From Alphaproteobacteria bacterium (GTDB lineage: Bacteria > Pseudomonadota > Alphaproteobacteria > RF32 > CAG-239), in NCBI GenBank assembly GCA_017479985.1, contig JAFVBL010000031.1, forward strand, positions 1 to 58,554: DNA of 58,554 bases, given 5' to 3'. Both the position numbers and the translations under genes were made by a program. The notes under the pieces were generated by a model. That model was not told the DNA's origin. It worked only from the letters and a program-made list of their open reading frames with translations, and ran no database searches. This document shows positions 6,551 to 28,803 of this stretch, piece after piece. Positions within the stretch are counted from its first letter, which is position 1. Each line of letters begins with the position of its first letter.

Positions 6551-6708
6551 TTTTTGCCTCTCTTGTTTTGTTCACATTCTGTTATTTTCCGAATCGTGTC
6601 GGAATCATATACAGACAATATAATCATTTTTACACGTTTGAAAAGTAGGCACTTTTTCGGGGCTTAGTTTCCTTTAAGGAACTGTTGGGGCAGGTTTTGC
6701 TTTTTTGC

Positions 6709-6736
6709 TTGCAATTTATAAGGTTTGTTTTAATAT
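6709..6736 (+). promoter_or_regulatory. Putative sigma70 promoter of cassette copy 1
   Basis: TTGCAA-N16-TAATAT. Identical in copy 2, and TTGAAT-N16-TATCAT at the equivalent position in copy 3. Confidence 0.6.
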
Positions 6737-6743
6737 AACATTT

Positions 6744-6925
6744 GCCGGCGAGAGGTCGTCGGCGGAGTGTCACAACTCCACGAATAAAAAAATACTCCTC
6801 TGTTGGTGGGGAGCCGGCGGAATATATTGAATACGCCGGACTGATTATTCGCAGTTGTGAACTCCCGACCACTTTTTCGAGTGGTCGCTTTTGTTTTAAT
6901 TTAACAAATTAAGGAGTTCTGAACG
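6744..6925 (+). ncRNA. Structured leader / C4-CI-like antisense RNA candidate, copy 1
   Basis: Hairpins at 6744-6763 and 6764-6779. Cloverleaf 6804-6871 with arms CCGGCG/CGCCGG and ACTG/CAGT. Terminator hairpin 6866-6887 plus T tract. Confidence 0.7.
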
Positions 6926-7159
6926 ATGATAAACAACACAATAACCTTCAAACAACAAAATCTGAAAGAAATCGGACACGCATTATGGTTGGCACGACAG
7001 GAAAAACCTCTGTTTATCTATCAGGTTGCCAAACGCGCAAGAGTACCGATTGATATGATTGACGTAATGGAATTGGGGAAAGCCGTTGATGAATATAATC
7101 TGCGGAAATTACTCAAATTTTATGGTAAAAAAATGCGCATCGTGTTTGAAGAAAAGTGA
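6926..7159 (+). CDS. Small Xre/Cro-like helix-turn-helix protein, copy 1
   Basis: IGHALWLARQEK-x-IYQVAKRARVP-x-IDVMELGK fits the Xre HTH pattern. AAGGAG RBS. Paralogs at 19992 and 24223. Confidence 0.8.
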   Translation: MINNTITFKQQNLKEIGHALWLARQEKPLFIYQVAKRARVPIDMIDVMELGKAVDEYNLRKLLKFYGKKMRIVFEEK

Positions 7160-7173
7160 CTTAGATGCAATAT

Positions 7174-8628
7174 TTATTCGCTCAGTTTAAACCAATCCGA
7201 CGGAATGCCGTTGACAATCAGAAAGGCGATTAAAAGACAGATATAAGCATAAATTTGCAGCATACTTAAAATATTTTCATACTTTTTGTTCGGTAAATGC
7301 GGCGCTAAGATATGCAGGAGTTTATTGACGCCGCTGATGCCGAGTATTATCAGTATGAATTGTATGAAAACGCCGCTGTTTTGCAGTTGTTCTTTAAATG
7401 CAGCGGCTATTTTATGCAAAAACGTGAAAAACACCAACAAAAAAGCCAGAAAACCGTTGAGCGCATAATATTTGATTTTATCAAATTGCTCTTTTTCAAT
7501 TTTTTTGCGGCGCAAGTTTTCCGTAACAAGTTTTTTAACTTCAAGACCGCGGACGGTTTGCGGTTCTTCCTGTTGTTTTTTATAATTATCAACTTGGATT
7601 TTGAACTTTTCCGCCGCAATGCACAGACCGCAGCCCTTCGGCGTGAAATAGACGTGATTCTTATCTTTTTTACAACGTTTGTAATGGTTGAGCAAATAAT
7701 CAAGATGAGCTTGCCATTCAAGCGCAGTCGGTCGTTCTTTGTCTTTGGCGAACGCACGTTCAAACAGGTTCATCGTTTCTTTGTCAAGATAGTCGTGAAT
7801 GCTGTACGGGTGCGGACGCTGATACGAATCCGGCCAAAAACCGTAGGCGTAATGATAGCCGGCAATGCGCTCTTGTATGGAAAGCATATCTTCTTTTTTG
7901 ACCGGCGTGCCCGAAAACGGATGTATGCCGTCATTCAACAGTTTGAAAATAATCACCGCCAACGCAAATTTATCTTGTTCTTCGCCCATTTCTTCGCAGG
8001 TCTGATTCATTCCTTCCGGATAAATATATTCTTCGCTGACAAACTCTGCGGGATAACGTGCGCCGTTTTCACCTTTAATCGAAAAGCCGTCACAGTCAAA
8101 TGCCACCACCAACTGATTTTGTTTGTATATCGAAACGTTGGAAGGTTTCAAATCCACAATGTAGTGTCCGCAAGCGTGCAAGGCCGCAACAACGGATGTA
8201 ATATTATAGGCGGCAAAAACACGGTCGAGATAGCGTTCGCTCAGACCGAGTTTGCGTCGTACGGCTTTTTGAATCAGATAATCAAGCGAAATGGCTTCAG
8301 TTGTATCAATTAGCGGCATAAGATAACCGACACAAAAGCCTTGGGTATCTTCCAAAAGAGCCGTCGGCCAAGCAATTTGGTGATATTCTTTTTCCTTGTA
8401 GGTAATGGTCGGAATATTCGGACGATTGTGAAGCATTGCCTCCAATTTTTGCCGGTTTGTGCCGCTGCGTTCTTTGGTATGAAAGATTTTTGCCACACTG
8501 TTCGGGTGGGTTAAATCACGATAGATTTTACCTGCAGCGCCGCCTTTGTTGAGCAATTCGCCCAAAAGAACGCGTTCGTTATGACCGTCGGGATAAAGCG
8601 CCAAACATAACATACGTGCTTCTGCCAT
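7174..8628 (-). CDS. Ser/Thr protein kinase with C-terminal TM helices (YegI-like, TerY-P triad)
   Basis: GGAAGKIY, VAKIF, IAWP, GYLMP, DLKPSN, DCDGF, DKFALAV, HPFSG. Start ATG 8628 overlaps the phosphatase stop (TAATG). Confidence 0.88.
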   Translation of the reverse strand: MAEARMLCLALYPDGHNERVLLGELLNKGGAAGKIYRDLTHPNSVAKIFHTKERSGTNRQKLEAMLHNRPNIPTITYKEKEYHQIAWPTALLEDTQGFCVGYLMPLIDTTEAISLDYLIQKAVRRKLGLSERYLDRVFAAYNITSVVAALHACGHYIVDLKPSNVSIYKQNQLVVAFDCDGFSIKGENGARYPAEFVSEEYIYPEGMNQTCEEMGEEQDKFALAVIIFKLLNDGIHPFSGTPVKKEDMLSIQERIAGYHYAYGFWPDSYQRPHPYSIHDYLDKETMNLFERAFAKDKERPTALEWQAHLDYLLNHYKRCKKDKNHVYFTPKGCGLCIAAEKFKIQVDNYKKQQEEPQTVRGLEVKKLVTENLRRKKIEKEQFDKIKYYALNGFLAFLLVFFTFLHKIAAAFKEQLQNSGVFIQFILIILGISGVNKLLHILAPHLPNKKYENILSMLQIYAYICLLIAFLIVNGIPSDWFKLSE

Positions 8629-9377
8629 TATACCTCCGCCCATAAAATAGTTTTATCATCTGCATTGAGCCGTTGCGCGCGTGCGTCGTTCAATGTATTG
8701 TTTAAGGCGCGCAGGGCATATGTTTTGTATTTTTCGCGTTCCAGATATTCTACAACCGGAATAAAAAATTTGCGCTGGATTTTGAAAAAGTCGTCCGAAA
8801 AGACAAAGCCGGTTACACCGTCGCTCATCAACATAATGCGATTGATATTTTCAAACGGTTTAAAACGCAGACATTCTTTCCATTCGGGCATTGTGTAAAA
8901 ATAGGTCTCGCACGAAAATGTGCCGTTTTCCGGTTCCGAAATTAAAATATTATCGTAATCACCGGAATTAAATGCAATGCCGGCGCCGTCACCGATGTGG
9001 AAAAAAATGCCTCTGCCGTTGCAATAAAAAAAGCCGACGACGGTTGCCGAAAAATGGCATAAATCCGCCTCTGATTTGCTTTTGTTGTAACGGTGAAAGA
9101 GCAATTTTTGCCGTGCTGTTTCAATGGCGTTTTTGATATCGCGGCGAATGGTTTTATGGTTGGAACGTATGAGTAAATCACATAAGGTTCGGCATATTGT
9201 TTTTGCGCCGATTTGGCCGTAACACGCCGAGCCGGCGCCGTCCGAAACAATGCCCACAAGTTTATTTTTATACCGCTTGCTGCAACAATAATCCTGACAC
9301 GGCATATTGTTTGCCTTATGTAAGGCACCGCGTTGCGAAGTGGCTAAAACCCGTATATGTTCGGATGTTTTCGGCAT
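8628..9377 (-). CDS. PP2C-family Ser/Thr phosphatase (YegK-like, TerY-P triad)
   Basis: GALH..PCQD, VSDGAGSA, HIGDG, MSDG and DDKT motifs. Confidence 0.92.
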   Translation of the reverse strand: MPKTSEHIRVLATSQRGALHKANNMPCQDYCCSKRYKNKLVGIVSDGAGSACYGQIGAKTICRTLCDLLIRSNHKTIRRDIKNAIETARQKLLFHRYNKSKSEADLCHFSATVVGFFYCNGRGIFFHIGDGAGIAFNSGDYDNILISEPENGTFSCETYFYTMPEWKECLRFKPFENINRIMLMSDGVTGFVFSDDFFKIQRKFFIPVVEYLEREKYKTYALRALNNTLNDARAQRLNADDKTILWAEV

Positions 9378-9381
9378 AGAC

Positions 9382-10062
9382 TTATTTCTCGTTCCATTCG
9401 GTTATGTCGTCAAGATATTTGTTGGCGTTCGGGGCGGCTTTGGAAATACACGAAACACTGCGGCTGAGCCAGAGGAAAAATTCGGTGAATTTTAAGCCGG
9501 TCAAACGTTTTGGCGGCAAAACGGAAAACTTTGCGAGTTTTTCCAAGTTTGCACCCTGTGTACCGATGGCGTGAATGACGACTTTTTTGTTTTTTTGCGC
9601 ATAACGGCAGAGTTCTGCCGAATCTTCCCAGCCGTAATCGGTCGGTTCGCCGTCGCTGATGAGGAAAATCCACGGACGTTTTGAGGTTACGCCGCAACTG
9701 TCATACAAGCATTTTTGTTCGTCAATTTTTTGCAAAGCCGTTTCCATTGCTTTGCCGAGCGGTGTTAAACCGCCTGCTTCCATAACGGGAGCCTCAAAGT
9801 TCATCGCGTCTATCCAATCAGATTCGATTTTTACCTCGTCTTTGCCGAAGGCTTTGATAATCAGCAGCTGTACACGTGAGCTGGCGTCAATGTCATCTTT
9901 GAGTTCTTTTTCGAGTGCGGCCAATCCGGCATTCAACTGTTTAATCGGTTCACCGCGCATCGAGCCGGAGCAATCCAACACCAACACGCACGGTGTACGT
10001 TCGTTTGCATTATCGGCAAATTCAACGTAAGGAATCCGTTCTATTGTATTTTGTTCAGTCAT
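9382..10062 (-). CDS. TerY-like von Willebrand factor A domain protein (YegL-like)
   Basis: LVLDCSGSM MIDAS motif, GGLTPLG, RPWIFLISDGEPTD and FTEFFLWLSRS. Confidence 0.92.
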   Translation of the reverse strand: MTEQNTIERIPYVEFADNANERTPCVLVLDCSGSMRGEPIKQLNAGLAALEKELKDDIDASSRVQLLIIKAFGKDEVKIESDWIDAMNFEAPVMEAGGLTPLGKAMETALQKIDEQKCLYDSCGVTSKRPWIFLISDGEPTDYGWEDSAELCRYAQKNKKVVIHAIGTQGANLEKLAKFSVLPPKRLTGLKFTEFFLWLSRSVSCISKAAPNANKYLDDITEWNEK

Positions 10063-10302
10063 TTGCACTCTCCTGAGGGTGCGGATATTGATGCGGAAAT
10101 CCGCTGCCCTCTACCGGATACGGTGCCGAATAGCGTCCGCAGGCACAAAGTGATGCAAAAACAACAAAGCAAATGCAACACAATAAAATTATTTTAAGAA
10201 AATGTTTCATTTATTAACCTTTTTTTGGAATCTTGATATTATATCTAATCTAACGGATAAAAGTTAAAGATAGTTTATTTTTTTGCAGAAAGTTGTAAAC
10301 GA

Positions 10303-10869
10303 ATGAATAAAATTTTGCAAATTAGTGTTGTTTTGTTATTATTTGTCTTTGGGGCAGTGTCCGCCGAGGCAAAAATCAATTTGTTTCCGAAACCGCGATA
10401 CATTCCGGCACTGAATATTTACGGTGACAGCGGAAAAGCTTTTCGTATGTCTGATTTTAAATCCGATTTGTTGGTTGCCGTTGTGTGGTCGCGTACTTGC
10501 GGACCGTGCTTGCAAGACTTGCGCCCGCTCGGTAATTTTACAAATGCGGTAAGAGATGACGGCATAGAGGTTATTTTGATTTCACCCGAAAAAGAATGGC
10601 GTACCGTTGATGAAAAACGCAATTTCTTGCGGCGTTTGGGGGCGAGCAATATAGTAAGTTTTAATGACCGGAATTCGCGGTTTAAAGACGGTATGGGATT
10701 ATCCGTCACGCCGACAACCGTGCTTGTGAATAAAAACGGCGAAGAAGTCGGGCAGATTACCGGCTCGGTTAAGTGGGACAGCGCCGAGGTGATTGACTAT
10801 ATGCGCAAACTTAAAACAAAAGTCTCAGAACAGCTTAATGAGAGCGAATCCGCCGATAAGCAGGATTAA
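10303..10869 (+). CDS. TlpA/ResA-like periplasmic thioredoxin
   Basis: Signal peptide, WSRTCGPC active site and TPTTVLVNKNG. Confidence 0.85.
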   Translation: MNKILQISVVLLLFVFGAVSAEAKINLFPKPRYIPALNIYGDSGKAFRMSDFKSDLLVAVVWSRTCGPCLQDLRPLGNFTNAVRDDGIEVILISPEKEWRTVDEKRNFLRRLGASNIVSFNDRNSRFKDGMGLSVTPTTVLVNKNGEEVGQITGSVKWDSAEVIDYMRKLKTKVSEQLNESESADKQD

Positions 10870-11418
10870 AAACAGCACGGAAAGCCAACCGAGATTTTTT
10901 TCTATAAACATCCGCATTCTTTCGCCGTAGGTTTTTAAAAGCCACGCAATCACAAAAAAGCGCAACCCGCGAGCCAGAATCGATGCAATCGTAAAGACAA
11001 TAAGATTCAGATGCACCACGCCGCTGGCAATGGTGATGATTTTGTACGGAAACGGCGTGATACCGGCGCCGAACACAATCCAAGCACCGTATTCGGTGTA
11101 TAGGTTTTTAAACTCGTTGAATTTATCCGTAAAGTGATAAAAGTTCAAAATAGGTTCGGCGATGAGTTGGAAAAAATACAAGCCGATGACATATCCCAAA
11201 TATGCTCCGACAACACTTGAAACGGTACACACACCGGCAATTTTCCACGCCTGTTTCGGTGCGGCGAGAATCATCGGAATCAACATAATATCCGGCGGAA
11301 TCGGAAAAAACGAACTTTCAATAAATGAAAATGCCGCCAACCACCAAATTGCATATTTTGAGCCGGAAAGATGAATGACTGCATCATAAATCCGGCGTAT
11401 CCATTTTGTAAAAAACAT
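10825..11418 (-). CDS. YqaA/DedA (SNARE-associated) membrane protein
   Basis: FIESSFFPIPPD and TPFPYK motifs. Confidence 0.9.
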   Translation of the reverse strand: MFFTKWIRRIYDAVIHLSGSKYAIWWLAAFSFIESSFFPIPPDIMLIPMILAAPKQAWKIAGVCTVSSVVGAYLGYVIGLYFFQLIAEPILNFYHFTDKFNEFKNLYTEYGAWIVFGAGITPFPYKIITIASGVVHLNLIVFTIASILARGLRFFVIAWLLKTYGERMRMFIEKNLGWLSVLFLILLIGGFALIKLF

Positions 11419-11457
11419 CGAAGTCCTTATATTTTTTAACTTAATTTTGAGGTGATA

Positions 11458-12090
11458 TTAGTGTAAAAATTTTTCGATTTCAGCATTGAGTTGATGTCTA
11501 TCCACATAAAAAATGCGCTGATGCGGCAAGGTATGGCGCGCCGATATAAATTGCGGCGTGTATTCAATTAAAACATTTTGCGGATTGTTTTTTCGTAAAT
11601 AACGTGCGGCAGCGTCAATATTATGCACTTCAAAGTATGTGTAATTGCCGTGATTCAGCATATCGTGCAGCGCATCGCTGTTTTCGGAATACGAATCGAG
11701 CAGCATAAACTGCGGCGTTTTCTGTCCGACACCGTAACTTTCGACAATGTCGGCAAGTTTGGCAAAATCTTGCGGCAGGTGTAAATAATGCGCAATGCGC
11801 GGATGCGGCGTAAAAGATTCATTGCCGGATTTCAATACGATAATCGGAAATTGTCGGGTGTCGGTTTTGTTTTCAAAACTTTCAAAGGTTTCTTTAGCCG
11901 GAGTTTCTCTGTTTTGCAAATTGAAAATCATCACATCGGGCGGGATAATTCGGGCATAACGCAACAGCTGGTATATGTTATCCGTGCCGAAAGTTTTGTA
12001 TGACTGATGGTCATACATATCGGCAAATGCCGAAAGCAACCCTTGATGATTATCATAATAAAAGATGTTTCCGAGCCCTGATGTTTGCAT
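11458..12090 (-). CDS. Hypothetical protein with degenerate receiver-like domains
   Basis: PPDVMIFN, FPIIVL and HYLHLP resemble receiver strands. A second similar unit follows. Confidence 0.5.
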   Translation of the reverse strand: MQTSGLGNIFYYDNHQGLLSAFADMYDHQSYKTFGTDNIYQLLRYARIIPPDVMIFNLQNRETPAKETFESFENKTDTRQFPIIVLKSGNESFTPHPRIAHYLHLPQDFAKLADIVESYGVGQKTPQFMLLDSYSENSDALHDMLNHGNYTYFEVHNIDAAARYLRKNNPQNVLIEYTPQFISARHTLPHQRIFYVDRHQLNAEIEKFLH

Positions 12091-12140
12091 TATATTCCCT
12101 TTCTGTTGATTACAGAAAATATAATCGCAAATTGTGTGAC

Positions 12141-12989
12141 TTAAAGGGGTTGATGTTGAATTATAAAGGCATCGTAAGTGTTTTGCAGAAGCATCGCGAT
12201 TGTCATCGGTCCGACACCGCCCGGTACCGGCGTAACGGCTGCTGCTTTGCCAAGAACATCATCGTAATCAATATCACCGCAGATTTTACCGTCAGCGCGA
12301 TTGATACCGACATCAATCAATATCGAATCGGGTTTTATCCAATCTGCTTTAACAAGTTTTGCCACACCGCACGCCGCAATCAAAATATCCGCCTTGCGCG
12401 TCAGGTCTTGTATGTTTTGTGTGTGAATATGCGTAATACTGACCGTACATTCCTGATTAAGCATCAGGGTGGCAAGCGGACGCCCGACAATCAATGATGC
12501 GCCGATGAGTACAACATTTTTGCCGCATAAGTCAGGACATACTTCTTTAATCAAAGTCATTATGCCGAGCGGGGTGGCGGCAATAAAATACGGCTTTTCG
12601 TTGTTTTGCAGCATTCCGGTATTATAAGGATGAAAGCCGTCAACATCTTTGAGCGGAGATATGCGGTCAATAATGCGATGCGTGTTTATGTGTGCCGGCA
12701 ACGGCAACTGCACAATAATGCCGTTGATGGCGGAATCGTTGTTGCAACGGTCAATCAGTGACAGCAATTCTTCTTCGGCGGTTGTTTCGCTTAAATGAAA
12801 CAATGTTGTTTTCAGACCGATTTCGGCAGCGGCTTTTTGCTTATTGCGCACATAAATCAGGCTCGAATCGTCATTACCTACCAATACGATTGCCAAATGC
12901 GGTGTTTGCGGCAGCAGTGAAATTTTTTGTTGGAGCTCACAGCGAATCCGCATTGCAATTTGTTTCCCGTCAATAATACGTGCCGTCAT
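12141..12989 (-). CDS. folD: Bifunctional methylenetetrahydrofolate dehydrogenase/cyclohydrolase
   Basis: IIDGK, YVRNK, VQLPLP, KDVDG and TPVPGGVGPMT. Confidence 0.97.
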   Translation of the reverse strand: MTARIIDGKQIAMRIRCELQQKISLLPQTPHLAIVLVGNDDSSLIYVRNKQKAAAEIGLKTTLFHLSETTAEEELLSLIDRCNNDSAINGIIVQLPLPAHINTHRIIDRISPLKDVDGFHPYNTGMLQNNEKPYFIAATPLGIMTLIKEVCPDLCGKNVVLIGASLIVGRPLATLMLNQECTVSITHIHTQNIQDLTRKADILIAACGVAKLVKADWIKPDSILIDVGINRADGKICGDIDYDDVLGKAAAVTPVPGGVGPMTIAMLLQNTYDAFIIQHQPL

Positions 12990-13307
12990 TTATTCTTCCT
13001 TTATTAAACTGTTGAGTTTTTCCGTCAGTTGCGGTGTCAGCGGGGTTTGTATGTAAAGTTTTTTGAAATGTATGGTCGCGCCGCTGATTAACTCAATATT
13101 TTGTTTTGGTATTTTAAGCTCTTTGGCAAGCATTTTAATCAGCTCTTTGTTGGCCTTTCCTTTTTCGGGCGCCGTTGTCAGATACACTTTAAGATACGTC
13201 TGTTCATCGGCGTTTACAAACAAACTGCCGAATCCGCAAAAGGCGGCATTCGGGGTCAGTTTGATGCGTACGGCGCAACCGGTTTTATGCGGCTCAAAAA
13301 AACTCAT
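12990..13307 (-). CDS. DUF167 (YggU) family protein
   Basis: APEKGKANKELI motif and yggT-DUF167-folD synteny. Confidence 0.88.
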   Translation of the reverse strand: MSFFEPHKTGCAVRIKLTPNAAFCGFGSLFVNADEQTYLKVYLTTAPEKGKANKELIKMLAKELKIPKQNIELISGATIHFKKLYIQTPLTPQLTEKLNSLIKEE

Positions 13308-13308
13308 C

Positions 13309-13626
13309 TTACATATAACTGTCTATCCATTTTGTAAGGCGCGTCACAAACGAGCCGACCAAAATCAGACCGAACAGTAAGACATACGGTGAAATATCGT
13401 GACCGGAAAGCGGTTTTACTTTTTTGCGAATCTGTTTATATACAGGTTCGGTCAGCATCTTCAAAATTTCCATAAACTTTTCGGCGTACGGGTTGTGTAC
13501 GCTCATCAGTTTATAATGCAACATCCAATACAATATAACATCAACCGCCACAACTTTGAAATAGAGGTCGATGATAATGCTTAACATATCTAACATCGGT
13601 AAAATAAATATTCCGAGAATTCCCAT
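13309..13626 (-). CDS. yggT: YggT family membrane protein
   Basis: LTEPVY...DISPY motif and synteny. Confidence 0.85.
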   Translation of the reverse strand: MGILGIFILPMLDMLSIIIDLYFKVVAVDVILYWMLHYKLMSVHNPYAEKFMEILKMLTEPVYKQIRKKVKPLSGHDISPYVLLFGLILVGSFVTRLTKWIDSYM

Positions 13627-13638
13627 TTGCTTTTCTCC

Positions 13639-14532
13639 TTAATTAACATCTTCGCCGTTTCCATTAAGCGGCGCTTTAGAATTTTCTAACACAAGAAATC
13701 TGTTTTTGTCAAACCCTCTTTTATTATATGTTCCACGTAAACGTGCAATTTGTTCACTGACTTCTTCCGGTGACCGACGGGAAGGTTCATATTCTGCCGG
13801 TGCTGAAGTTTCTGTATTTTCAGACGTTTCGGCGGTTTCCTGACGCAAGCGCAGCAACATAATGCGCTTGAGCCAATTTTCGTGATTAAAATGATCGGAT
13901 AAATCTTCATCGTCTTCGTGGTCTATGCCCAGACTTGCGCGTTCTTTCGGGCTGAAGTGATAGTCATAGCCGAGATTTTGCAAAGATTTGAGCATTTTAT
14001 ACAGCGGCTTGGCGCGTTCAAATTCATCACGGTCGGTGGTTACACCTTGCTCATCACGCGTGTATGTGACTATCAGGTCGTGAATCTCACGAAGCCGGAC
14101 AATGTTCAGCGTCATTTCATTGAGACGCGTCTGATTATCAAAGTTCACGGACTTAAGCAAACAATAGGCGGTAAAAAGTGCAAATTCGTATCGTTCGGTT
14201 GTTTTAAGGAAGTCCTGCCGTTCGGCGTAGTCTTCGTCTGTGATATAACCGTCATTCATATGTTTGATGATTTCTGCCGCCTGCTCGACAATTTCGCGGT
14301 GCGTTTGCTGCGGTGATTCTTCGACACAGCTGCGTGTCAACTGTGTGGCAAGCATCTCCATAATTTGCGCTTTATTGTAACTTTCGGTATTAAATTCGAC
14401 CATATAATCGTCGGGAGCCAAAATCACTTCTCGAAAAATAGTGCGCGCATTTTGTTCGCTGACATACGGAAAACATTTTTCCGTTGCCTCGTATAAAACG
14501 TCAAAATATGTGCATTTTTCGTATCGTCCCAT
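13639..14532 (-). CDS. Hypothetical acidic protein
   Basis: 297-aa ORF, co-oriented and tightly spaced within the operon. Confidence 0.7.
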   Translation of the reverse strand: MGRYEKCTYFDVLYEATEKCFPYVSEQNARTIFREVILAPDDYMVEFNTESYNKAQIMEMLATQLTRSCVEESPQQTHREIVEQAAEIIKHMNDGYITDEDYAERQDFLKTTERYEFALFTAYCLLKSVNFDNQTRLNEMTLNIVRLREIHDLIVTYTRDEQGVTTDRDEFERAKPLYKMLKSLQNLGYDYHFSPKERASLGIDHEDDEDLSDHFNHENWLKRIMLLRLRQETAETSENTETSAPAEYEPSRRSPEEVSEQIARLRGTYNKRGFDKNRFLVLENSKAPLNGNGEDVN

Positions 14533-14535
14533 AAA

Positions 14536-14973: not shown

Positions 14974-15108
14974 TGTTTCTCCTTAAACATAATCACAAAA
15001 GCATATTATATGCATTTCCGTTATTTTGCAACACAAAAAAATGTTGAAAAAAAATACGGATTAGCGTATGGATTATATATTGTTTGAATTTAGAAACGGA
15101 AGATTAAG

Positions 15109-16443: not shown

Positions 16444-16445
16444 CA

Positions 16446-17426
16446 ATGGCGGAAATTTGTTTTGAACTTTTTAACAATCAGTTGGTACAACAGCTCGTCG
16501 GTGAGGCCGACAGTAATTTGCGGCTGATTGAAAAAATGCTGAATGTCGAAATTTTGAGTTTCGGCAATCAAATTACGGTCAAAGGAAGCACCGGCGATGT
16601 CGATAATGCCAAAACGGCGATTGAAATTTTGTATAACAAAGTCAGCCGCGGTGTGGATATCGGCGAACAGGAAGTTAAGGCTGCCGTCAGAATGAGCGGT
16701 GATGTGCATACCGAAGATGACAAGCAGAATTTGACGGATATCGTGCTTAAAACAAAAAAACGCTATATTTATCCGCGCTCGGCGAATCAGGCAAAATATA
16801 TTCAGGAAATGATGAAAAACGAGTTGGTATTCGGCTTGGGACCGGCCGGTACGGGTAAAACGTATTTGGCGGTGGCGTTGGCAGTTTCTATGATGCTTGA
16901 AGGCACAATCGATAAAATTATCTTATCGCGTCCGGCGGTGGAAGCCGGCGAGAATTTAGGCTTTTTACCGGGGGACTTGAAGGAAAAAGTCGACCCGTAT
17001 CTGCGTCCGCTTTACGATGCGCTTTATGAGATGCTTCCGGCAGAACAGGTGGATAAAAAATTAGCTCTCGGCGAAATTGAAATCGCACCGCTTGCTTTTA
17101 TGCGCGGGCGGACGTTGGCAAACTCGTTTGTTATTTTGGACGAAGCGCAAAATACAACGCCGATGCAGATGAAAATGTTTTTGACCCGTTTGGGCGAAAA
17201 TTCGCGAATGGTGGTCAACGGCGACTTAAGTCAGGTTGATTTACCGCGCGGGGTGCTTTCCGGTTTACGTGATGCTTTGGAAACGCTAAAGAATGTGTCG
17301 AACATTTCGTCTGTGACATTCGGTTCCGAAGACGTGGTGCGCCACGGGTTGGTTGCAAAAATCGTCAAAGCCTATGAAGAAAAAAGCAAACGTACACAAG
17401 AGGCGGCACGTTACGAAAATGTCTGA
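16446..17426 (+). CDS. phoH: PhoH-like ATPase
   Basis: GPAGTGKT, RPAVEAGE, FMRGRT and DEAQN. Confidence 0.96.
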   Translation: MAEICFELFNNQLVQQLVGEADSNLRLIEKMLNVEILSFGNQITVKGSTGDVDNAKTAIEILYNKVSRGVDIGEQEVKAAVRMSGDVHTEDDKQNLTDIVLKTKKRYIYPRSANQAKYIQEMMKNELVFGLGPAGTGKTYLAVALAVSMMLEGTIDKIILSRPAVEAGENLGFLPGDLKEKVDPYLRPLYDALYEMLPAEQVDKKLALGEIEIAPLAFMRGRTLANSFVILDEAQNTTPMQMKMFLTRLGENSRMVVNGDLSQVDLPRGVLSGLRDALETLKNVSNISSVTFGSEDVVRHGLVAKIVKAYEEKSKRTQEAARYENV

Positions 17427-17940
17427 GGTTATATTGGATACGGTTGTTGAAGATGAACGTTGGCCGACGGCAATCGAAAACATTGAACAAGTGGCGGATA
17501 AAGTTAAATCCGCCGCTTTCAGCTATTTGAGAACGCACGAGGATTTGGCGTTTTTATCAGGTGAAAAACCGTTGCGTGTGAATTTGTGTCTGAGTGATGA
17601 TGATACGGTGCATCGCCTGAATAAAGAGTTTCGTGGTCAGGATAAGCCGACCAATGTACTCTCGTTTGCCAATTTGGATTTTGAAGATTTTGATGCCGAA
17701 AATGAGCCGTTTGATGAGATTGAACTCGGTGATATCATTGTGGCGTATGAGACAATGGTGCGCGAGGCGGCAGAGCAGGAAATTACGCTTTATGCACATT
17801 TTTGCCATTTGTTGACACACGGTTTGTTGCATCTCTCGGGTTATGACCACATTGAAGCTGATGAGGCGGTGTATATGGAAAATATGGAAAGAGAAATTTT
17901 GCAAACGCTTGATATTGCAAATCCTTATGAGGGGGAATAA
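17419..17940 (+). CDS. ybeY: rRNA maturation endoribonuclease YbeY
   Basis: RGQDKPTNVLSF, LGDI and HGLLHLSGYDH. Start moved to ATG 17419, overlapping the end of phoH. Confidence 0.95.
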   Translation: MSEVILDTVVEDERWPTAIENIEQVADKVKSAAFSYLRTHEDLAFLSGEKPLRVNLCLSDDDTVHRLNKEFRGQDKPTNVLSFANLDFEDFDAENEPFDEIELGDIIVAYETMVREAAEQEITLYAHFCHLLTHGLLHLSGYDHIEADEAVYMENMEREILQTLDIANPYEGE

Positions 17941-19761
17941 ATGGCAAAACAAACTAAAGCACGTGCTAGAGGTAAAAGTGTTCAGAATAAAACGGAAAAA
18001 ACGTCTGCACAAGAAAAAAAAGTGCCGGCTTTGAAAAAAATGACGCCGAAAACGGCAACAGCAAAGGCAGTGTCTGAAACAAAAAAACATAAAGAACGCA
18101 CGGCAAGAACGCGCAATGAAGAAAAATCTGAAAAATCAGCAAAAGCAAATACTTTACAGAAAAATAATTTGCGCACTGAAAAAAATGTCACGCGGATATT
18201 TACGGCTGATTTTTGGGGCGAAAACTTGCAAAAAATTGCACATCACCCGAAAATGACGGCTTTGTTGCTCGGAGTTTTGCTTACGGCCGCTTTGCCGCCG
18301 TTTTATTATACGGTTGCGCTGTTTATAGCCTTTGCCGGTGCAATGTTTTTAGCGTATCGCAACGAAAAATTTTGCACGCTTGCCGCTATCGGTTATTGGT
18401 TTGGTTTCGGATATTTCGGTGCCGGATTTTATTGGATCGGCAATGCGTTATTGATTGATGTGGTGCAGACCGGTTGGCTTTATCCGATTGCATTGTTTTT
18501 AAACGGTGCGTTTTTCGGATTGTTTGTAATTTTGCCGTTTATGGCAACAAAACTCGGCAGAAATGTTGTTACAAAATCGATGTTATTGGCTGCAGTTTGG
18601 TGTTTGGTTTCCGAATGGCTGCGCGGTTTTTTGCTGACGGGGTTTCCGTGGAATCCGGTCAGTTCAATGTTGACGTTCAGTCCGGCAATGATGCATATTT
18701 TATCACTGTTCGGTACATACGGCGTTTCTCTGATATTGGTATTTCTGGCTTCTGTTCCGGCAATATGGTTGGTTAAACCGAATAAAATGCGTTTTTATAC
18801 GGCGGGAAGTTTTGTTCTATGTGTGTGGCTCGGTATTTGGATTTACGGCGGGCACGTTTTGGAAAACAGACCGAAAATTCCGGACGGGCAATCGTTGGTT
18901 GTACGTTTGGTACAGCCGAGTATTCCGCAGACTTTGAAATGGAATCGTGAAACGTTGGAAGAAAATCTGCGTACATATATTGATTTGAGCAAAGAAAACG
19001 ATAACGGTTATGTCGATTTTACGGTCTGGGGTGAAACAGCATATCCGTATGATATCGAATATGATTATAATCATAACCGAATGTTGACATCGGCCGTTCC
19101 GCCTTACGGTTATTTAATCACCGGATTTTTGCGGCGTGAGCACGACGGCTACAAGCATACGGCATATAATTCGTTTGCGGTTGTCAATAAAAAAGGAGAG
19201 CCGGTCGGGTGGTATGATAAGAGTCATTTGGTGCCTTTCGGGGAATTTCTGCCGTTCAGAAAGTATTTGCCGGATTGGGTTAAACCGCTGGCGAGCGTTG
19301 TGGCGGAATTCGGACGCGGAGAAAAGTACAAAATTTTGCAAGTCGGTGATTATCCGGCATTTGCACCGCTGATATGCTATGAGGTTATCTTTTCGGATGA
19401 GGTGGTGAAAAAAGGTTTGGCGAAGCCGACGTGGGCAGTGGTGCTGACAAATGACGGTTGGTATGGTATCAGTGCCGGTCCGTATCAGCATTTGGCGGCG
19501 GCTCAAATGCGGGCGGCGGAGGAAGGAATCTCAATTGTCCGCAGTGCCAACAGCGGCATCAGCGCGGTAATCAATCCGTATGGGGAAATAAAGGCACTGC
19601 TGCCATTGGGAACGCGCGGTGCGACAGATGCTTTGGTTAAGCCTGATGAAGCATATCAGACACTTTTCGGGCAATACGGCAATAAGATTCCGTTGGCTAT
19701 GAGCGGTGTATTGATTCTGTTGGCACTTGTTTGCCGACTGTTTGCGCGTCGTTCGGAATAA
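17941..19761 (+). CDS. lnt: Apolipoprotein N-acyltransferase with a basic N-terminal extension
   Basis: EWLRG..TGFPW, YDKSHLVPFGE, ICYE, TNDGW and QHL motifs. Confidence 0.95.
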   Translation: MAKQTKARARGKSVQNKTEKTSAQEKKVPALKKMTPKTATAKAVSETKKHKERTARTRNEEKSEKSAKANTLQKNNLRTEKNVTRIFTADFWGENLQKIAHHPKMTALLLGVLLTAALPPFYYTVALFIAFAGAMFLAYRNEKFCTLAAIGYWFGFGYFGAGFYWIGNALLIDVVQTGWLYPIALFLNGAFFGLFVILPFMATKLGRNVVTKSMLLAAVWCLVSEWLRGFLLTGFPWNPVSSMLTFSPAMMHILSLFGTYGVSLILVFLASVPAIWLVKPNKMRFYTAGSFVLCVWLGIWIYGGHVLENRPKIPDGQSLVVRLVQPSIPQTLKWNRETLEENLRTYIDLSKENDNGYVDFTVWGETAYPYDIEYDYNHNRMLTSAVPPYGYLITGFLRREHDGYKHTAYNSFAVVNKKGEPVGWYDKSHLVPFGEFLPFRKYLPDWVKPLASVVAEFGRGEKYKILQVGDYPAFAPLICYEVIFSDEVVKKGLAKPTWAVVLTNDGWYGISAGPYQHLAAAQMRAAEEGISIVRSANSGISAVINPYGEIKALLPLGTRGATDALVKPDEAYQTLFGQYGNKIPLAMSGVLILLALVCRLFARRSE

Positions 19762-19767
19762 GAAGAA

Positions 19768-20216
19768 TTTTTGCTTGCAATTTATAAGGTTTGTTTTAAT
19801 ATAACCTTTGCCGGCGAGAGGTCGTCGGCGGAGTATCACAGCTCCTCGTATTAAATAAACTCCTCTATTGGTGGGGAGCCGGCGGAATATATTGAATACG
19901 CCGGACTGCTTATACGACAGTTGTGAACTCCCGACCACTTTTTCGAGTGGTCGCTTTTGTTTTGATTTAACAAATTAAGGAGTTCTGAACGATGATAAAC
20001 AACACAATAACCTTCAAACAGCAAAATCTGAAAGAAATCGGACACGCATTATGGCTGGCACGACAGGAAAAACATCTGTTTATCTATCAGGTTGCCAAAC
20101 GCGCAAGAGTACCGATTGATATGATTGACGTAATGGAATTGGGGAAAGCCGTTGATGAATACAATCTGCGGAAATTGCTCAAATTCTACGGCAAAAAAAT
20201 GCACATCGTGTTTGAA
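19768..20216 (+). repeat. Dispersed promoter-leader RNA-HTH cassette, copy 2
   Basis: Near-identical to copy 1. Begins 7 bp after the lnt stop codon. Confidence 0.95.
19810..19991 (+). ncRNA. Structured leader / C4-CI-like antisense RNA candidate, copy 2
   Basis: Same stems as copy 1. Differences fall in loops and linkers or keep pairing (ACTCC to GCTCC gives a U-G pair). Confidence 0.7.
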
Positions 20217-20219
20217 TAA
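19992..20219 (+). CDS. Small Xre/Cro-like HTH protein, copy 2
   Basis: 73 of 75 residues identical to copy 1. Confidence 0.8.
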   Translation: MINNTITFKQQNLKEIGHALWLARQEKHLFIYQVAKRARVPIDMIDVMELGKAVDEYNLRKLLKFYGKKMHIVFE

Positions 20220-20306
20220 TTCTTAAAATTTAACTTGAAAAATCAATCAAATATGCTACATTGAAACCATAATTGAAATAATTGTGGAATTTAAATATCT
20301 ATCATT

Positions 20307-20663
20307 ATGGAAGAAGTAAGGATTATTTGTACGCCGTTTCTGATTGCCGCAATTGTGTTTACGTTGGCAATGCTGTATTACGAGATGCAGTTCAAAAAGA
20401 AAAATCCGTGGTGGTCGCAAGATGACTGCAGAATGCGTCTGTCTCCGGCAGAGCGGGCTTATCGCCAAAATGAACGCCGCAAACATAACAACGCTCTGAT
20501 GTGTTGGTTTGCCGTGTTGTTTGTGGTGTTGGGGCTGATGATTGTTGTTTTGCTGTCACACATTAACGGCGGTTTCCCGAATATCGGGCATTATTGGTTG
20601 TATTTGGTGCCGTTTGTCGGTGCGGTAGTGTTTGCTTGCAGCTGTATTCAGCGCCGAAAGTGA
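20307..20663 (+). CDS. Hypothetical membrane protein
   Basis: 118 aa with three hydrophobic segments, followed by a terminator-like hairpin. Confidence 0.6.
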   Translation: MEEVRIICTPFLIAAIVFTLAMLYYEMQFKKKNPWWSQDDCRMRLSPAERAYRQNERRKHNNALMCWFAVLFVVLGLMIVVLLSHINGGFPNIGHYWLYLVPFVGAVVFACSCIQRRK

Positions 20664-20710
20664 AGAATTTTTCCCCTTTGCATAAGATATGCCGAGGGGA
20701 AATTTTTTTT
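20662..20710 (+). terminator. Putative intrinsic terminator
   Basis: AATTTTTCCCCTTTGCATA / TATGCCGAGGGGAAATT imperfect stem plus T tract. Confidence 0.55.
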
Positions 20711-20807
20711 GCGTTTACGGGTGCGAGATATGTATACAACATACACAAAATACTTGCGCCGATTTGAGGATTCGTATATTTTTTAAACAAACGGGAGAGA
20801 TAAAAAT

Positions 20808-21467
20808 ATGATTGCTAAATTACGCGGAATTATAGATACGCTCGGCGAAGATTCGTGTATTATCGATGTAAACGGTGTCGGTTATCAGGTGGCGGCATCG
20901 GCAAAAACACTCGGTAAATTGAATGTTGGAGCGGAAACAACGCTTTTGACGATTATGACGGTGCGTGAAGATGATATTTCTCTGTTCGGGTTTGCCGATG
21001 CGTGGGAAAAAGAATGGTTCAATACACTGACCAGAGTGCAGGGCGTGGGCGCAAAAGTCTGCTTGAGTATTCTCTCGGTGCTGACACCGGCGCAACTTTC
21101 TCAAGCCATAAGCGCACAAGATAAGGCATCTTTTTGCCGTGCATCGGGTGTGGGACCGAAATTGGCAGCGCGAATCGTGACTGAGTTAAAGGATAAAATT
21201 GTGACGGTACCGGTTGCGGTCAGCGGTTCGTTTGGGGCAACAACTGCGGCCGATAATGCGGAAACAGCGGTCGAGATTAAGAATCTTCCGACATCTGATA
21301 TGGATTATACCAAGAGCGAAGACGTGACATCAGCTTTGATTAACCTCGGGTATCAGCGTTTGGAAGCATATCGGGCAGCGAGTAAAGTGGTGGCGGAAAA
21401 TCCTCAGGCCGCAATCTCGACGCTTATTCGCTTGGCGCTTAAAGAATTTATCAATAAGGATATTTAA
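20808..21467 (+). CDS. ruvA: Holliday junction branch migration protein RuvA
   Basis: [32 protein letters not shown] and SALINLGY. Confidence 0.96.
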
Positions 21468-21469
21468 CA

Positions 21470-22534
21470 ATGAAAGATGATGCCAGAATAGTCAGCCCGC
21501 AGGCACAGCCGGAAGATACACAGGTCGGCAACAATCCGGTCAGTTTGCGGCCGACATCACTCAAAGATTTTGTCGGACAACGCGAAGTCTGCGATAACCT
21601 TAAGGTGTTTATCGAGGCGGCAAAACAGCGCGGTGAAGCCCTTGACCACGTTTTGTTGTTCGGTCCTCCGGGACTTGGTAAAACCACACTGTCATCGATT
21701 GTGGCAAAAGAACTCGGGGTCGGATTCAGGGCAACTTCCGCGCCGATGATTTCCAAATCGGGCGACTTGGCGGCGATTCTGACAAACCTTGAACGCAATG
21801 ATGTATTGTTTATTGATGAAATTCACCGCCTGAATCCGGCAATTGAGGAAGTTCTTTATTCGGCAATGGAAGATTTTCAGCTTGATTTGATTATCGGCGA
21901 AGGTCCGTCGGCACGTTCTGTGCGAATCGATTTGCAACCGTTTACACTGGTGGGAGCGACGACGCGTTCGGGTTTACTTTCCACGCCGCTGCGTGAACGT
22001 TTCGGTATTCCGATGAGATTGGATTTTTACAGTCACGAAGATTTGAAAAAAATTGTGTTGCGCGGTGCGCATTTGCTGAATATCGAAATTTCGGACAGCG
22101 GAGCAATGGAAATTGCCAAACGTTCACGCGGGACGCCGCGAATCGCCGGCCGATTGCTGCGTCGGGTACGCGATTTCGGTGCGGTTTCAGACAAACAGAT
22201 TATTGATGAGCAGATTTCCGATATGGCTTTGCGTCGGCTTGATGTAGACGATTTCGGACTTGATAATTTTGACCGGCGCTATTTGAATTGCATTATCAAT
22301 AATTACGGCGGCGGTCCGGTCGGAGCAGATACGTTGGCGGCGGCGCTTTCGGAAGAACGTGATACAATTGAAGAAGTCGTTGAGCCGTTTTTGCTTAAAC
22401 TCGGATTTTTGCAACGTACACCGCGCGGACGCGTTATTTCGCAACTCGGGTATAAATATCTCGGGATTAAAATGCCGCAGAAGCAAACAAAACAATATGA
22501 TTTGTTGTCGGAGGCGGAAGATGGCGGATTTTAA
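21470..22534 (+). CDS. ruvB: Holliday junction DNA helicase RuvB
   Basis: [26 protein letters not shown] and RGTPRIA. Confidence 0.98.
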
Positions 22535-22970
22535 AGTGTTGCCGGCAAAAGGCGAAATTATCGGCAAAGTTTTTGCGTATCCGGTGCGTGTGTATTATGA
22601 AGATACCGATGCCGGCGGAATAGTTTATTATGCCAATTACCTCAAGTTTGCCGAACGGGCGCGTACCGAATTTTTGCGCACATTGCAAGTGTGTCAGCAG
22701 GAGGATTTGGAACAAAAACAAACCGGTTTTGTGGTGCGTGCGTGTCATATCGAATATCTGAAATCGGCTGTCTTGGACGATGCTTTGGTTGTAACGTGTC
22801 AAGCGGCGGCGCAGGGGGCGGCAAGTGCAACGATTGCACAAGAGATTTTGCGCGGGGAAGAAGTGCTGGCAACTTTGGAAGTTAAAGTTATTTATATGAA
22901 TATTGCCACACATCGTCCGACGCGTATTCCGGCAGATATGACCGAAAAATTTAAACAGCTTCTTGTATAA
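22521..22970 (+). CDS. ybgC: Tol-pal-associated acyl-CoA thioesterase
   Basis: [26 protein letters not shown]. Start moved to ATG 22521. Confidence 0.93.
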
Positions 22971-23679
22971 GGAAAAAAAGGGGATATTTACGGAAATACA
23001 ACAAAAATTTTTGGAATATGCCGCTTCGCCGTATGCCGGTATTGACGGCGGCGATGAAAATGCCGAGTATTGGTTTGTCGGTATGGAATGGTCATCACGC
23101 GCAGATTTTGCGGAAAGCTATGAAAAATGGCAACAACAAGCTGAGAATCCATATTCAAAAAATGTTGATATCACAAAAGGTTCGTGGGTATTTGAAGAAA
23201 AATTGCAGGATATTTATCGGCGTTTACCGCACACCGTATGCGATAAAATGATTTTTGCCGAAGGTTCAAATTCATTTAAGCTGAATTTGTTTCCGCTTTC
23301 GTTTAATACCGATGATGAGAAGAAGAATTGGGCAAATGATGCAACGGCGCAAAAGACTGGTTTTGCCAATTTTAAGGCATATCAACAGGCGGTTGTTTCG
23401 GCGCGGCAAAAATTGTTTACCGAGCTGTTGAAGCTTAATCGAAAGGAAAAAACGATTTTTTGTTTCGGTACGGGATATTCGGAATATTTCGCTACGGCAT
23501 TTGATATTGCCGAATCGGATTTTGCTGAGCAAACAGCACGTCTTTCGGGTAATCGTCGCTTTTATGTTGCAGCTGCGAAAAATCCGTTAATAAAGAAAAT
23601 TATACTTTGTCCGTTTCCGCGCTATGCGTTTAATGATAAGGATATTGAAAAAATTAGCTCAATTATGATTGGCGTATGA
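22963..23679 (+). CDS. Hypothetical protein, possibly uracil-DNA-glycosylase-like fold
   Basis: GGDENAEYWFVGMEW, FKLNLFP, IFCFG and ILCPFP are spaced like UDG-superfamily motifs. The fold call is inference. Confidence 0.55.
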   Translation: MYKEKKGIFTEIQQKFLEYAASPYAGIDGGDENAEYWFVGMEWSSRADFAESYEKWQQQAENPYSKNVDITKGSWVFEEKLQDIYRRLPHTVCDKMIFAEGSNSFKLNLFPLSFNTDDEKKNWANDATAQKTGFANFKAYQQAVVSARQKLFTELLKLNRKEKTIFCFGTGYSEYFATAFDIAESDFAEQTARLSGNRRFYVAAAKNPLIKKIILCPFPRYAFNDKDIEKISSIMIGV

Positions 23680-23788
23680 TTATCAGATGCATTTTGCGCT
23701 GTCAGATGCGATAAAATAAAGTCATTCTTCGCAATGTGTCGTGCATCAGGTCATTAAGGAATCAGACCTTTACGTAGCGCTGTTTCTT
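23656..23788 (+). repeat. ~133-bp dispersed repeat, copy A (supplies the upstream gene's stop codon)
   Basis: Aligns with 28373-28504 from AGCTCAATTATGATT to TAGCGCTG(T/A)TTCTT. Confidence 0.9.
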
Positions 23789-23980
23789 TTAACGCATATT
23801 TTGAAATAAAGGCAGACACTAAAAGAAACGGAAGACCCTCTGACGATTTTCGCTTAAGCAAAATTCAAATGGTGACTTTATTTTTTTTGCCCAAGGCAGC
23901 ACAGTACTGCAGGAGATTGTCACGTCGCTGCGCTCCTAAAGGTGACGAGTCTTTTCTTTCGTACTGTAGTCTGCAATCAA

Positions 23981-24223
23981 TTAAGTTAAATTTTCATCAA
24001 AAACAATGCGCATTTTTCTGCCGTAAAATTCGGTTAGACGGCGTAATGCGGTGTGTTGAATAAATTTGCCGATTTCCATACCTTCAATCACTCGTGCCGG
24101 CAGATTGGTCCGATAGGCAACAGTGCGTAAATACATTCTTTTTTCGGTACGTAATTTCCATAATTCTGCCCCGATGGCACATAATGTTTCTTTATCCATA
24201 TAACAAGATTTAATTTTGGTCAT
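23981..24223 (-). CDS. Small Xre/Cro-like HTH protein, copy 3 (divergent)
   Basis: About 40% identical to copy 1 by manual alignment. Shares IG..LW..R.EK, VA.R..P..I..ME.GK and FYG.KMRIVF. Confidence 0.8.
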   Translation of the reverse strand: MTKIKSCYMDKETLCAIGAELWKLRTEKRMYLRTVAYRTNLPARVIEGMEIGKFIQHTALRRLTEFYGRKMRIVFDENLT

Positions 24224-24403
24224 TTTCAGAACTCCTTAATTTGTTAAATTAAAACAAAAACGACCACTCAAAAAGCGGTCGGGAGTTCCTAACTGCGAAT
24301 AATCAGTCCGGCGTATTCAATATATTCCGCCGGCTCCCCACCAACAGAGGAGTTAATTTTGTTTGCGGAGTTGTGACACTCCGCCGGCGGCCTCTTATCG
24401 GTA
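24224..24403 (-). ncRNA. Structured leader / C4-CI-like antisense RNA candidate, copy 3
   Basis: Reverse complement reads ...GGAGTGTCACAACTCC...CTCCTCTGTTGGTGGGGAGCCGGCGGAATATATTGAATACGCCGGACTGATTATTCGCAGTTAGGAACTCCCGACC...AAGGAGTTCTGAAAATG. Confidence 0.7.
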
Positions 24404-24409
24404 AAAATT

Positions 24410-24437
24410 ATGATATACAAACTATCGTAAAATTCAA
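24410..24437 (-). promoter_or_regulatory. Putative sigma70 promoter of cassette copy 3
   Basis: TTGAAT-N16-TATCAT on the minus strand, at the same position as in copies 1 and 2. Confidence 0.6.
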
Positions 24438-24467
24438 GTTAAATTTAGGCAAAATAAAAAATTGGTG

Positions 24468-28800: not shown

Positions 28801-28803
28801 TTG

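Follow-up and report, generated by a model that had tools for sequence, protein, structure and literature searches.

A leader RNA with two predicted, competing folds, related to sRNA-Xcc1, precedes small Xre-like genes and varied other genes in small-genome Alphaproteobacteria

Three small cassettes in a 58,554-nt stretch of alphaproteobacterial DNA (contig JAFVBL010000031.1 of assembly GCA_017479985.1; the whole stretch is called the window below) share a conserved, structured leader RNA of ~155 nt with two mutually exclusive folds, and the same leader precedes many different genes across a lineage of Alphaproteobacteria with small genomes. A first-pass annotation, made from the sequence of the window alone, had described the cassettes as a new system of promoter, structured RNA and small Xre-type helix-turn-helix (HTH) gene. 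The anatomy so described stands, whereas the claim of a system without precedent does not, as the 3' domain of the RNA is a consistent, sub-threshold match to the Rfam family sRNA-Xcc1 (RF02221). Nor is the pair of RNA and HTH gene a self-contained system: the same RNA architecture precedes many non-HTH genes or stands alone, and the unit is therefore a general regulatory leader. From sequence comparison, we regard the leader as a divergent member of the sRNA-Xcc1 superfamily with a 5' extension predicted to refold it. It probably acts in cis, as an attenuator or riboswitch-like leader in which a terminator, an antiterminator and a helix that sequesters the Shine-Dalgarno (SD) site compete.

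All three cassettes lie where they had been annotated, and each comprises a promoter-like element, a multi-hairpin leader with a terminator, and a gene for an Xre-like HTH protein of 75-80 amino acids (aa). The structured leader RNA of each ends in an intrinsic terminator, and an SD site precedes the HTH gene. Their parts are as follows (window coordinates; R1 is a covariance model that we built from 60 leader copies; P1 to P5 are helices described below).

6702-7159, plus strand: cassette copy 1
19768-20219, plus strand: cassette copy 2
23981-24437, minus strand: cassette copy 3
6709..6736, plus strand: copy 1 promoter-like element TTGCAA-N16-TAATAT, read in the sequence, with hexamers conserved in other genomes
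6742..6897, plus strand: copy 1 structured leader RNA, placed by the R1 match (6742-6894, 149 bits), covariation and the terminator scan
6744-6763, plus strand: copy 1 P1
6764-6768, plus strand: copy 1 pseudo-SD GGAGU
6775-6779, plus strand: copy 1, 3' arm of the local hairpin
6781-6787 with 6845-6851, plus strand: copy 1 P3
6795-6800 with 6808-6813, plus strand: copy 1 P4
6814-6839, plus strand: copy 1 P5
6853-6865, plus strand: copy 1, 3' strand of P2, including the anti-SD GAACUCC
6866-6887, plus strand: copy 1 intrinsic terminator and T-tract, called by the terminator scan
6911-6916, plus strand: copy 1 SD AAGGAG; GGAGUUC at 6913-6919 complements the anti-SD
6926-7159, plus strand: copy 1 coding sequence (77-aa HTH protein)
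19775..19963, plus strand: copy 2 promoter (from 19775) and leader RNA; R1 match 19808-19960, terminator from 19932
19977..20219, plus strand: copy 2 SD and coding sequence (75-aa HTH protein, coding sequence 19992-20219)
24422-24438 region, minus strand: copy 3 promoter-like element
24254..24438, minus strand: copy 3 promoter and leader RNA; R1 match 24254-24404, terminator 24261-24281
23981..24237, minus strand: copy 3 SD (24221-24237 region) and coding sequence (23981-24223, 80-aa HTH protein)

Upon aligning the copies, we found that the shared stretch begins just 5' of TTGCAA-N16-TAATAT and stops near the stop codon, as the annotation had described. A consensus promoter scan did not call this element, which matches at 8 of 12 positions where the threshold of the scanner is 9; its hexamers are kept in every printed upstream region of copies from other genomes, and we infer from the sequence that it serves as a sigma-70-type promoter. 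Copy 2 is 94% identical to copy 1 over a 224-nt leader and 96% over the coding sequence. For copy 3, the annotation had contrasted an RNA of about 90% identity with a protein of about 40%, and we measured 90% over 189 nt of leader against 39% for the protein. Together with the strong covariation described below, this contrast bears out the view that the RNA is the more constrained part of the cassette. The copy 1 leader also folds better than its shuffled versions (z = -6.2), none of 200 shuffles being as good.

Fold 1, the first of the two, has P1 as its 5' hairpin; the long-range helix P2 is stacked on P3, and P4 and P5 are the hairpins of a three-way junction. In a MAFFT alignment of 60 copies, 96.7% of its cells pair, and two-sided changes occur at 26 of its 39 pairs (394 cells), with P1, P3 and P5 covarying at every pair. 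None of 500 shuffles reached this level, and slid controls paired at 31-45%. The leader thus holds the conserved structured domain with covariation that is expected of a riboswitch. Beside the helices, we noted that the P5 loop of the genus (GAAUAUAUUGAAUA; window 6814-6839 and equivalents) holds the self-complementary AAUAUAUU, and that its position in other genera is taken by an 8x8 A-rich internal loop closed by an additional hairpin. The P5 loop is a candidate site for a tertiary contact, protein binding or a kissing interaction.

Fold 2 is incompatible with fold 1: in it, the CUCC segment and the bases that follow complement the 3' strand of P4 together with the loop bases preceding that strand. 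Of 60 copies, 50 retain the first pair beyond the own strand of P4, which occurs as five pair types. The duplex of P4 3' strand and anti-SD from the same copy had a mean energy of -13.9 kcal/mol versus -10.7 for cross pairs, a difference of 3.2 that arose in none of 300 permutations. A contiguous helix of at least 7 bp was present in 106 of 132 copies, 7 of these 106 being judged mis-assigned, and the distant forms have perfect helices of 9-12 bp with quite different sequences. The helix encloses P5 and a 4-bp ACUG/CAGU hairpin, the loop of which is the 3' strand of P3; two pairs of this hairpin show double changes, in 10 and 13 sequences. The 5' GGAGU meanwhile lies in a local hairpin, of which one pair persists in 52 of 60 copies, its double changes numbering 30; the distal alternative of that pair is retained in only 36 of 60. 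We also considered a model with the local hairpin only and no antiterminator helix, and rejected it: within the genus it is weak, with double changes in 2-3 sequences, and its support comes from other genera.

The downstream signals interlock with these helices. A terminator hairpin with a T-tail follows in 94 of 99 copies, and in 89 of these 94 its 5' arm overlaps the 3' strand of the alternative helix by 2-8 nt, which is the classic arrangement of a predicted antiterminator. Furthermore, covariation links the flank on the 3' side of the SD core to the flank on the 5' side of the anti-SD core (for example UUC/GAA, UUG/CAA, UUA/UAA and CU/AG). Of 120 rows, 25 were dropped for want of an SD or a qualifying open reading frame (ORF); in the other 95, position +1 pairs in 87 copies (shuffle mean 77.2) and position +3 in 72 copies (shuffle mean 48.3), values that none of 5000 shuffles attained in either case. 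The leader hence carries an expression platform with mutually exclusive structures, again as in riboswitches. A leader peptide was discarded as an explanation, no conserved ORF being visible in the leader by eye.

On these pairings we base the following model. A sigma-70-type promoter would drive a ~155-nt cis-acting leader followed by the small Xre/HipB-like gene. In fold 1, the terminator would be left free, transcription would stop, and the ~155-nt RNA would be released. In fold 2, the 3' strand of P4 would pair with the CUCC anti-SD segment and with the first 2-8 nt of the terminator 5' arm, forming an antiterminator helix that encloses P5 and the ACUG/CAGU hairpin while the 5' GGAGU is locked in its local hairpin; the terminator would then be blocked and the anti-SD hidden. 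In read-through transcripts, the anti-SD could pair with the real SD (GAACUCC with GGAGUUC), which would place translation under control as well. Candidate triggers would be a small molecule, a protein or a further RNA, and the direction of the switch as given here is likewise a prediction from the pairings.

In its helices and its added signals, the leader resembles dual-control riboswitches and attenuators: its multi-helix domain covaries in the stems and has loop and junction positions that never vary, its terminator and antiterminator helices exclude each other, an anti-SD is present, and it occurs many times per genome before varied genes. Cyclic di-GMP riboswitches likewise occur many times per genome before varied genes. 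It differs from known riboswitches in that no Rfam riboswitch matched it and in that its cargo (Xre regulators, glycosyltransferases, methyltransferases, lipoproteins, a pilin) suggests no ligand. A retron RNA or the RNA of a type III toxin-antitoxin system was rejected for want of a reverse transcriptase and of tandem RNA repeats.

The closest relative that we found, sRNA-Xcc1, is reportedly a trans-acting small RNA (sRNA) under HrpG/HrpX control, going by the title of, and citations to, the work of Chen et al. in 2011. At the Rfam gathering score, nothing matched in the window and only tRNAs matched on 10 diverse loci. Below that score, full-length matches to sRNA-Xcc1 appeared in 16 of the 29 regions scanned, at 23-42 bits against a gathering cut-off of 53 bits, and in every one of them the model aligned over all of its 87 positions, exactly on the three-way junction of fold 2. 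Copy 1 scored 26.1 bits (6805-6878) and the other window score was 23.1 bits; 5 of 8 long-form copies (see below) scored 27-38.5 bits and 10 of 20 distant loci 30-41.6 bits. All 10 hits of the sRNA-Xcc1 model in the genome that holds the window are leader copies that had been found independently. Across 151 genomes of the class, the scores run continuously from 70 to 31 bits, with 5 genomes above the cut-off and 25 at E <= 1e-3, a tally that includes one weak match (in G249) flagged as unpublished. The above-threshold alphaproteobacterial members also precede Xre HTH and DNA-methyltransferase genes. Four of 10 above- or near-threshold loci (L161, L163, L169, L170) appear by eye to have a 5' extension with P2/P3-like complementarity, which neither R1, with a single weak hit on the above- or near-threshold loci (L170, E 0.055), nor a longest-complement comparison bore out.

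In both RNAs, an outer helix encloses two hairpins, one with an A-rich internal loop (AUA...GAAUA) and the other small; both RNAs are also multi-copy and lie upstream of small genes. The window RNA differs by a ~70-nt 5' extension (P1, the local hairpin, and the 5' strands of P3 and P4) that would be able to refold the junction, and by the addition of a separate terminator and an SD-pairing segment, whereas the 3' three-way junction is all that is spanned by the Rfam model and by the 88-nt RNA mapped in Xanthomonas campestris. In that species, sRNA-Xcc1 was confirmed by Northern analysis as a discrete 88-nt RNA (PMC2996969). Xylella has seven copies, reported as transcribed, and five of these form a tandem series with spacings of about 381-386 nt (PMC12189769). 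The most widespread integron cassette of Xanthomonas has sRNA-Xcc1 ahead of symE, in opposition to the cassette promoter (bioRxiv 10.1101/2025.06.18.660453), and APSE phages have it upstream of an ORF6N protein (bioRxiv 10.1101/2020.03.17.996009). The portions of the sRNA-Xcc1 literature covered here describe neither a 5' extension nor a cis-acting switch, and we found no earlier description of the leader in the literature on alphaproteobacterial riboswitches and structured RNAs, the supplements of which may hold more. sRNA-Xcc1 has been described as trans-acting, whereas the evidence on the window RNA points to a cis-acting switch.

The annotation had expected further copies elsewhere, and these were found. 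The window is contig C25 of a 1.18-Mb assembly of 43 contigs that is 83% complete (G000). By blastn, this assembly holds nine leader copies, seven full and two cut by contig ends, and fragments of the coding sequence at two further contig ends; R1 recovered the seven full copies and one weak match. A sequence profile of diverse hits (nhmmer) added 12 divergent copies of a long form with an extra hairpin, bringing the total to ~21. One of the long-form copies is a fourth leader in the window, preceding an ORF that is not HTH by eye.

28574..28783, plus strand: long-form leader copy (nhmmer match 28668-28782, E 1.2e-3)
28574-28593, plus strand: its P1
28673-28760, plus strand: its three-way-junction domain
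28757-28775, plus strand: its terminator
28801-29106, plus strand: the ORF behind it (101 aa)

Beyond this assembly, R1 matched 122 of the 151 genomes scanned in the same family, spread over 20 of its 23 genera, all of them small-genome Alphaproteobacteria; it also matched 117 of 151 genomes of the order and, of 150 genomes that represent other families of the class, 6, all small. One complete, related 1.6-Mb genome has 25 short-form copies. A protein-based scan of named records gave 42 loci, titled 'Alphaproteobacteria bacterium' or 'uncultured Rhodospirillaceae' and all from rumen or gut metagenome-assembled genomes, and blastn found the leader upstream of the protein in all 42, two being cut by contig ends. 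An assembly artefact was ruled out, since the same cassette occurs in many other independent genomes. In three DNA sequencing runs, which may include the source sample of the window, both junctions of copy 1 are bridged by independent contigs, and the contigs of these runs break at the repeat. As a side observation, some loci carry tandem arrays (L019, L020, L006, L025, L115), either RNA-RNA-CDS (CDS, coding sequence) with separate promoters or RNA-CDS-RNA-CDS, and one genome (G039, L163) has three above-threshold sRNA-Xcc1 copies spaced exactly 994 nt apart.

The genes behind the leader vary while the RNA stays conserved. Among 60 model hits in other genomes, 51 had a qualifying ORF, and the HTH family profile matched 33 of these ORFs but not the other 18; the gene starts 13-31 nt past the RNA in most copies. 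In distant genomes, the leader precedes lipoproteins, Cys-rich secreted proteins, pilin-like proteins and a type IVb pilin confirmed by Pfam. In the window's own assembly, the long-form leaders precede three GT2 glycosyltransferases, two DNA methyltransferases (recognised by eye from their DPPY and NPPF motifs rather than by Pfam), a PEGA-like lipoprotein, a membrane protein and two small proteins; the PEGA-like family also stands behind the leader in a distant genome (L089). Three long-form copies lack an ORF and are followed instead by a conserved ~90-nt segment with an SD-like GGAGUU and a strong terminator; these copies may represent independent sRNAs of about 260 nt.

Glycosyltransferase, methyltransferase and lipoprotein loci L147, L148, L150-L152 and L155: C22, C42:8816-9010, C11:24859-24955, C12, C41 and C26
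ORF-less long-form copies L149, L153 and L156: C42:5643-5804, C28:48515-48673 and C14:10176-10275

The small proteins themselves are probably Xre-type HTH proteins, as annotated, judging by profile matches to solved structures, HTH-bearing homologues and a HipB-like predicted fold. The window proteins score below the Pfam thresholds (HTH_3, 12.9 bits with a cut-off of 23; HTH_25, 17.3 bits with a cut-off of 24.6); the family profile matched Xre regulators among structures in the PDB (best E 3e-6), and the homologues carry HTH_3, HTH_25 and HTH_31. In other genomes, 8 of 10 cargo proteins matched HTH families at E <= 0.01, four of these exceeding the curated cut-off. An AlphaFold2 (AF2) model with a pLDDT of 89 found HipB antitoxins as its top fold matches, at a template-modelling (TM) score of 0.72. 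As in HipB and Xre proteins, four helices are predicted, followed by a conserved C-terminal segment, FYGKKMRIVFE. Unlike HipB, these HTH genes are stand-alone and monocistronic, each behind a structured leader, and no gene for HipA or another toxin adjoins the cassettes of the window.

Several observations weigh against a cis-acting switch with two folds. A second alignment, of 60 additional hits outside this genome, agrees with fold 1 (93.4% of its cells pair, with double changes at 37 of 39 pairs) but was fitted to the model of that fold and leans toward it. The basal 5 bp of P2 (GGAGU/ACUCC) are invariant in the genus and mismatched in 24 of 60 copies from other genera, and this part of fold 1 is weak for that reason. 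The covariation controls ignore kinship, many copies being paralogues in few genera, so that significance is overstated; the variety of pair types across genera is a stronger argument than the shuffle statistics. Every copy in the genome misses the sRNA-Xcc1 cut-off (best 38.5 bits), the heterogeneous cargo points to no metabolite, and no ligand or protein partner is indicated. Other points of this kind speak for a trans-acting sRNA like sRNA-Xcc1, whose ~155-nt product with three CUCC motifs would bind the SD sites of other mRNAs, including those of paralogous cassettes, while the downstream gene is merely co-located or expressed through leaky read-through: the three ORF-less copies with their extra 3' domain, the tandem RNA-RNA-CDS arrays in which each RNA has its own promoter, and the accumulation of the Xanthomonas relative as a discrete sRNA (PMC2996969). 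A strong terminator between RNA and gene, the transcription of the seven Xylella copies (PMC12189769), and SD regions of paralogues so nearly identical that cross-pairing would be possible fit such a role as well. By contrast, the SD flanks covary with the anti-SD of their own copy, the short distance from most copies to the gene leaves no space for a separate promoter, and an overlap of antiterminator and terminator would be sensible only in cis. We therefore consider a trans-acting role in place of the cis-acting one unlikely; the two are not mutually exclusive, and a trans role may coexist with control in cis.

The annotation had also pictured a self-contained module that multiplied through the chromosome, of which the discrete extent from promoter to stop codon and the many copies hold, while the RNA is not specific to HTH genes. 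A selfish or addiction-type mobile module, akin to the sRNA-Xcc1-symE cassettes or to a toxic nucleic-acid-binding protein restrained by an RNA, would account for the orthologous site of copy 1, which is occupied in two genomes of the genus (G000 and G004) and empty in eight others. At the empty sites, the flanking genes are adjacent, with 10-113 nt between alignments, and the indel begins shortly before the promoter and ends shortly after the stop codon. The flanks of copy 2 are not adjacent in other genomes (a synteny break), and leader and coding sequence can form mosaics, a copy on contig C13 having a coding sequence 97% identical to that of copy 1 and a leader only 78% identical. The HipB-like predicted fold would suit such a module, as would the symE cassette, which is widespread and for which horizontal transfer was shown (bioRxiv 10.1101/2025.06.18.660453). 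On the other side, comparison of occupied and empty sites revealed neither terminal repeats nor a target duplication at the copy 1 junctions, in agreement with the annotation; no transposase or integrase was seen there, and inspection by eye gave no conservation past the stop codon and no attC-like end, no attC model or IntI search having been made. Moreover, no toxin partner such as HipA adjoins the gene, the leader also stands before ordinary genes such as glycosyltransferases and a lipoprotein, and some positions are common to several species, several cassettes in different species adjoining the 3' end of uvrA (by eye). A mobile module is thus improbable. Still less credible are two readings that the annotation had put forward: a domesticated phage-immunity switch, in which an antisense RNA of the c4/IsrK kind would work with a repressor like Cro or CI, and a sentinel that incoming elements would de-repress. 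A small Xre repressor-like protein behind an upstream terminator-bearing RNA does resemble immunity regions in outline, and one Xylella pauca sRNA-Xcc1 copy is listed beside C4 and IsrK RNAs (PMC12189769). However, c4, c4-a1b1, c4-2 and IsrK gave no Rfam match at the gathering score in the window or up to E 10 for copy 1, no phage genes lie nearby, and the same RNA precedes non-regulator genes. Nothing matched by blastn in phage (50,697 records) and plasmid records, an IMG/VR motif scan gave three loci, none genuine by R1, and an IMG/VR protein-pattern scan found no relatives. The cis-acting leader remains the reading that we favour.

The surroundings of the cassettes are those of a housekeeping region (NMO-like, Hanks-type Ser/Thr kinase, PP2C, Lnt, RuvA, RuvB, Smr and TerB-like genes), and inspection of the neighbouring genes showed no transposase, integrase or phage gene adjoining the window cassettes, as had been noted. 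The Hanks-type kinase and the PP2C phosphatase lie side by side at 7174-9377, adjoining copy 1; a link of this pair to the cassette is unlikely because the flank of the kinase gene is also present at the eight empty sites. By eye, hairpin-forming short repeats resembling miniature inverted-repeat transposable elements (MITE-like) occur at ~23890-23960 of the window, downstream of the cassettes on contigs C4 and C43 of the same assembly, and between terminator and SD at two loci (L016, L024); in the copy on contig C38, such a repeat cuts the coding sequence short. In one genome, the ORF behind the leader runs into a fragment of an rve-type transposase (L127, by eye).

Rather than an RNA-plus-HTH system, as annotated, the cassettes are better seen as small regulators that have expanded in this lineage behind a leader that is general and switch-like. 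The leader would have been co-amplified with the small HTH family, recombination shuffling leaders and coding parts, and it would control many accessory and surface-related genes in a small-genome lineage of Alphaproteobacteria. On this reading, sRNA-Xcc1, so far a little-understood 'trans-acting sRNA' known from plant pathogens and integron cassettes, would form the central part of a bigger switch, one that acts in cis and is widely distributed among uncultured, host-associated Alphaproteobacteria, and the leader may rank among the most abundant structured regulatory RNAs reported for a bacterial genome of this size. The two-state architecture, with covariation for each alternative helix, yields testable predictions and a target for the hunt for ligands or protein partners. 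Tentatively, and with more doubt than confidence, we raise the possibility of an orphan riboswitch class of which Rfam sRNA-Xcc1 is only the 3' half, and which senses one global signal (e.g., a second messenger) to co-ordinate a large regulon. If so, that regulon would comprise Xre regulators, surface glycosyltransferases, pilins, lipoproteins and DNA methyltransferases, amounting to ~2% of all genes in small-genome, host-associated Alphaproteobacteria. Overall, the paired expansion of leaders and small regulators of the HipB-like kind suggests that these reduced genomes have a regulatory layer of an unusual sort.

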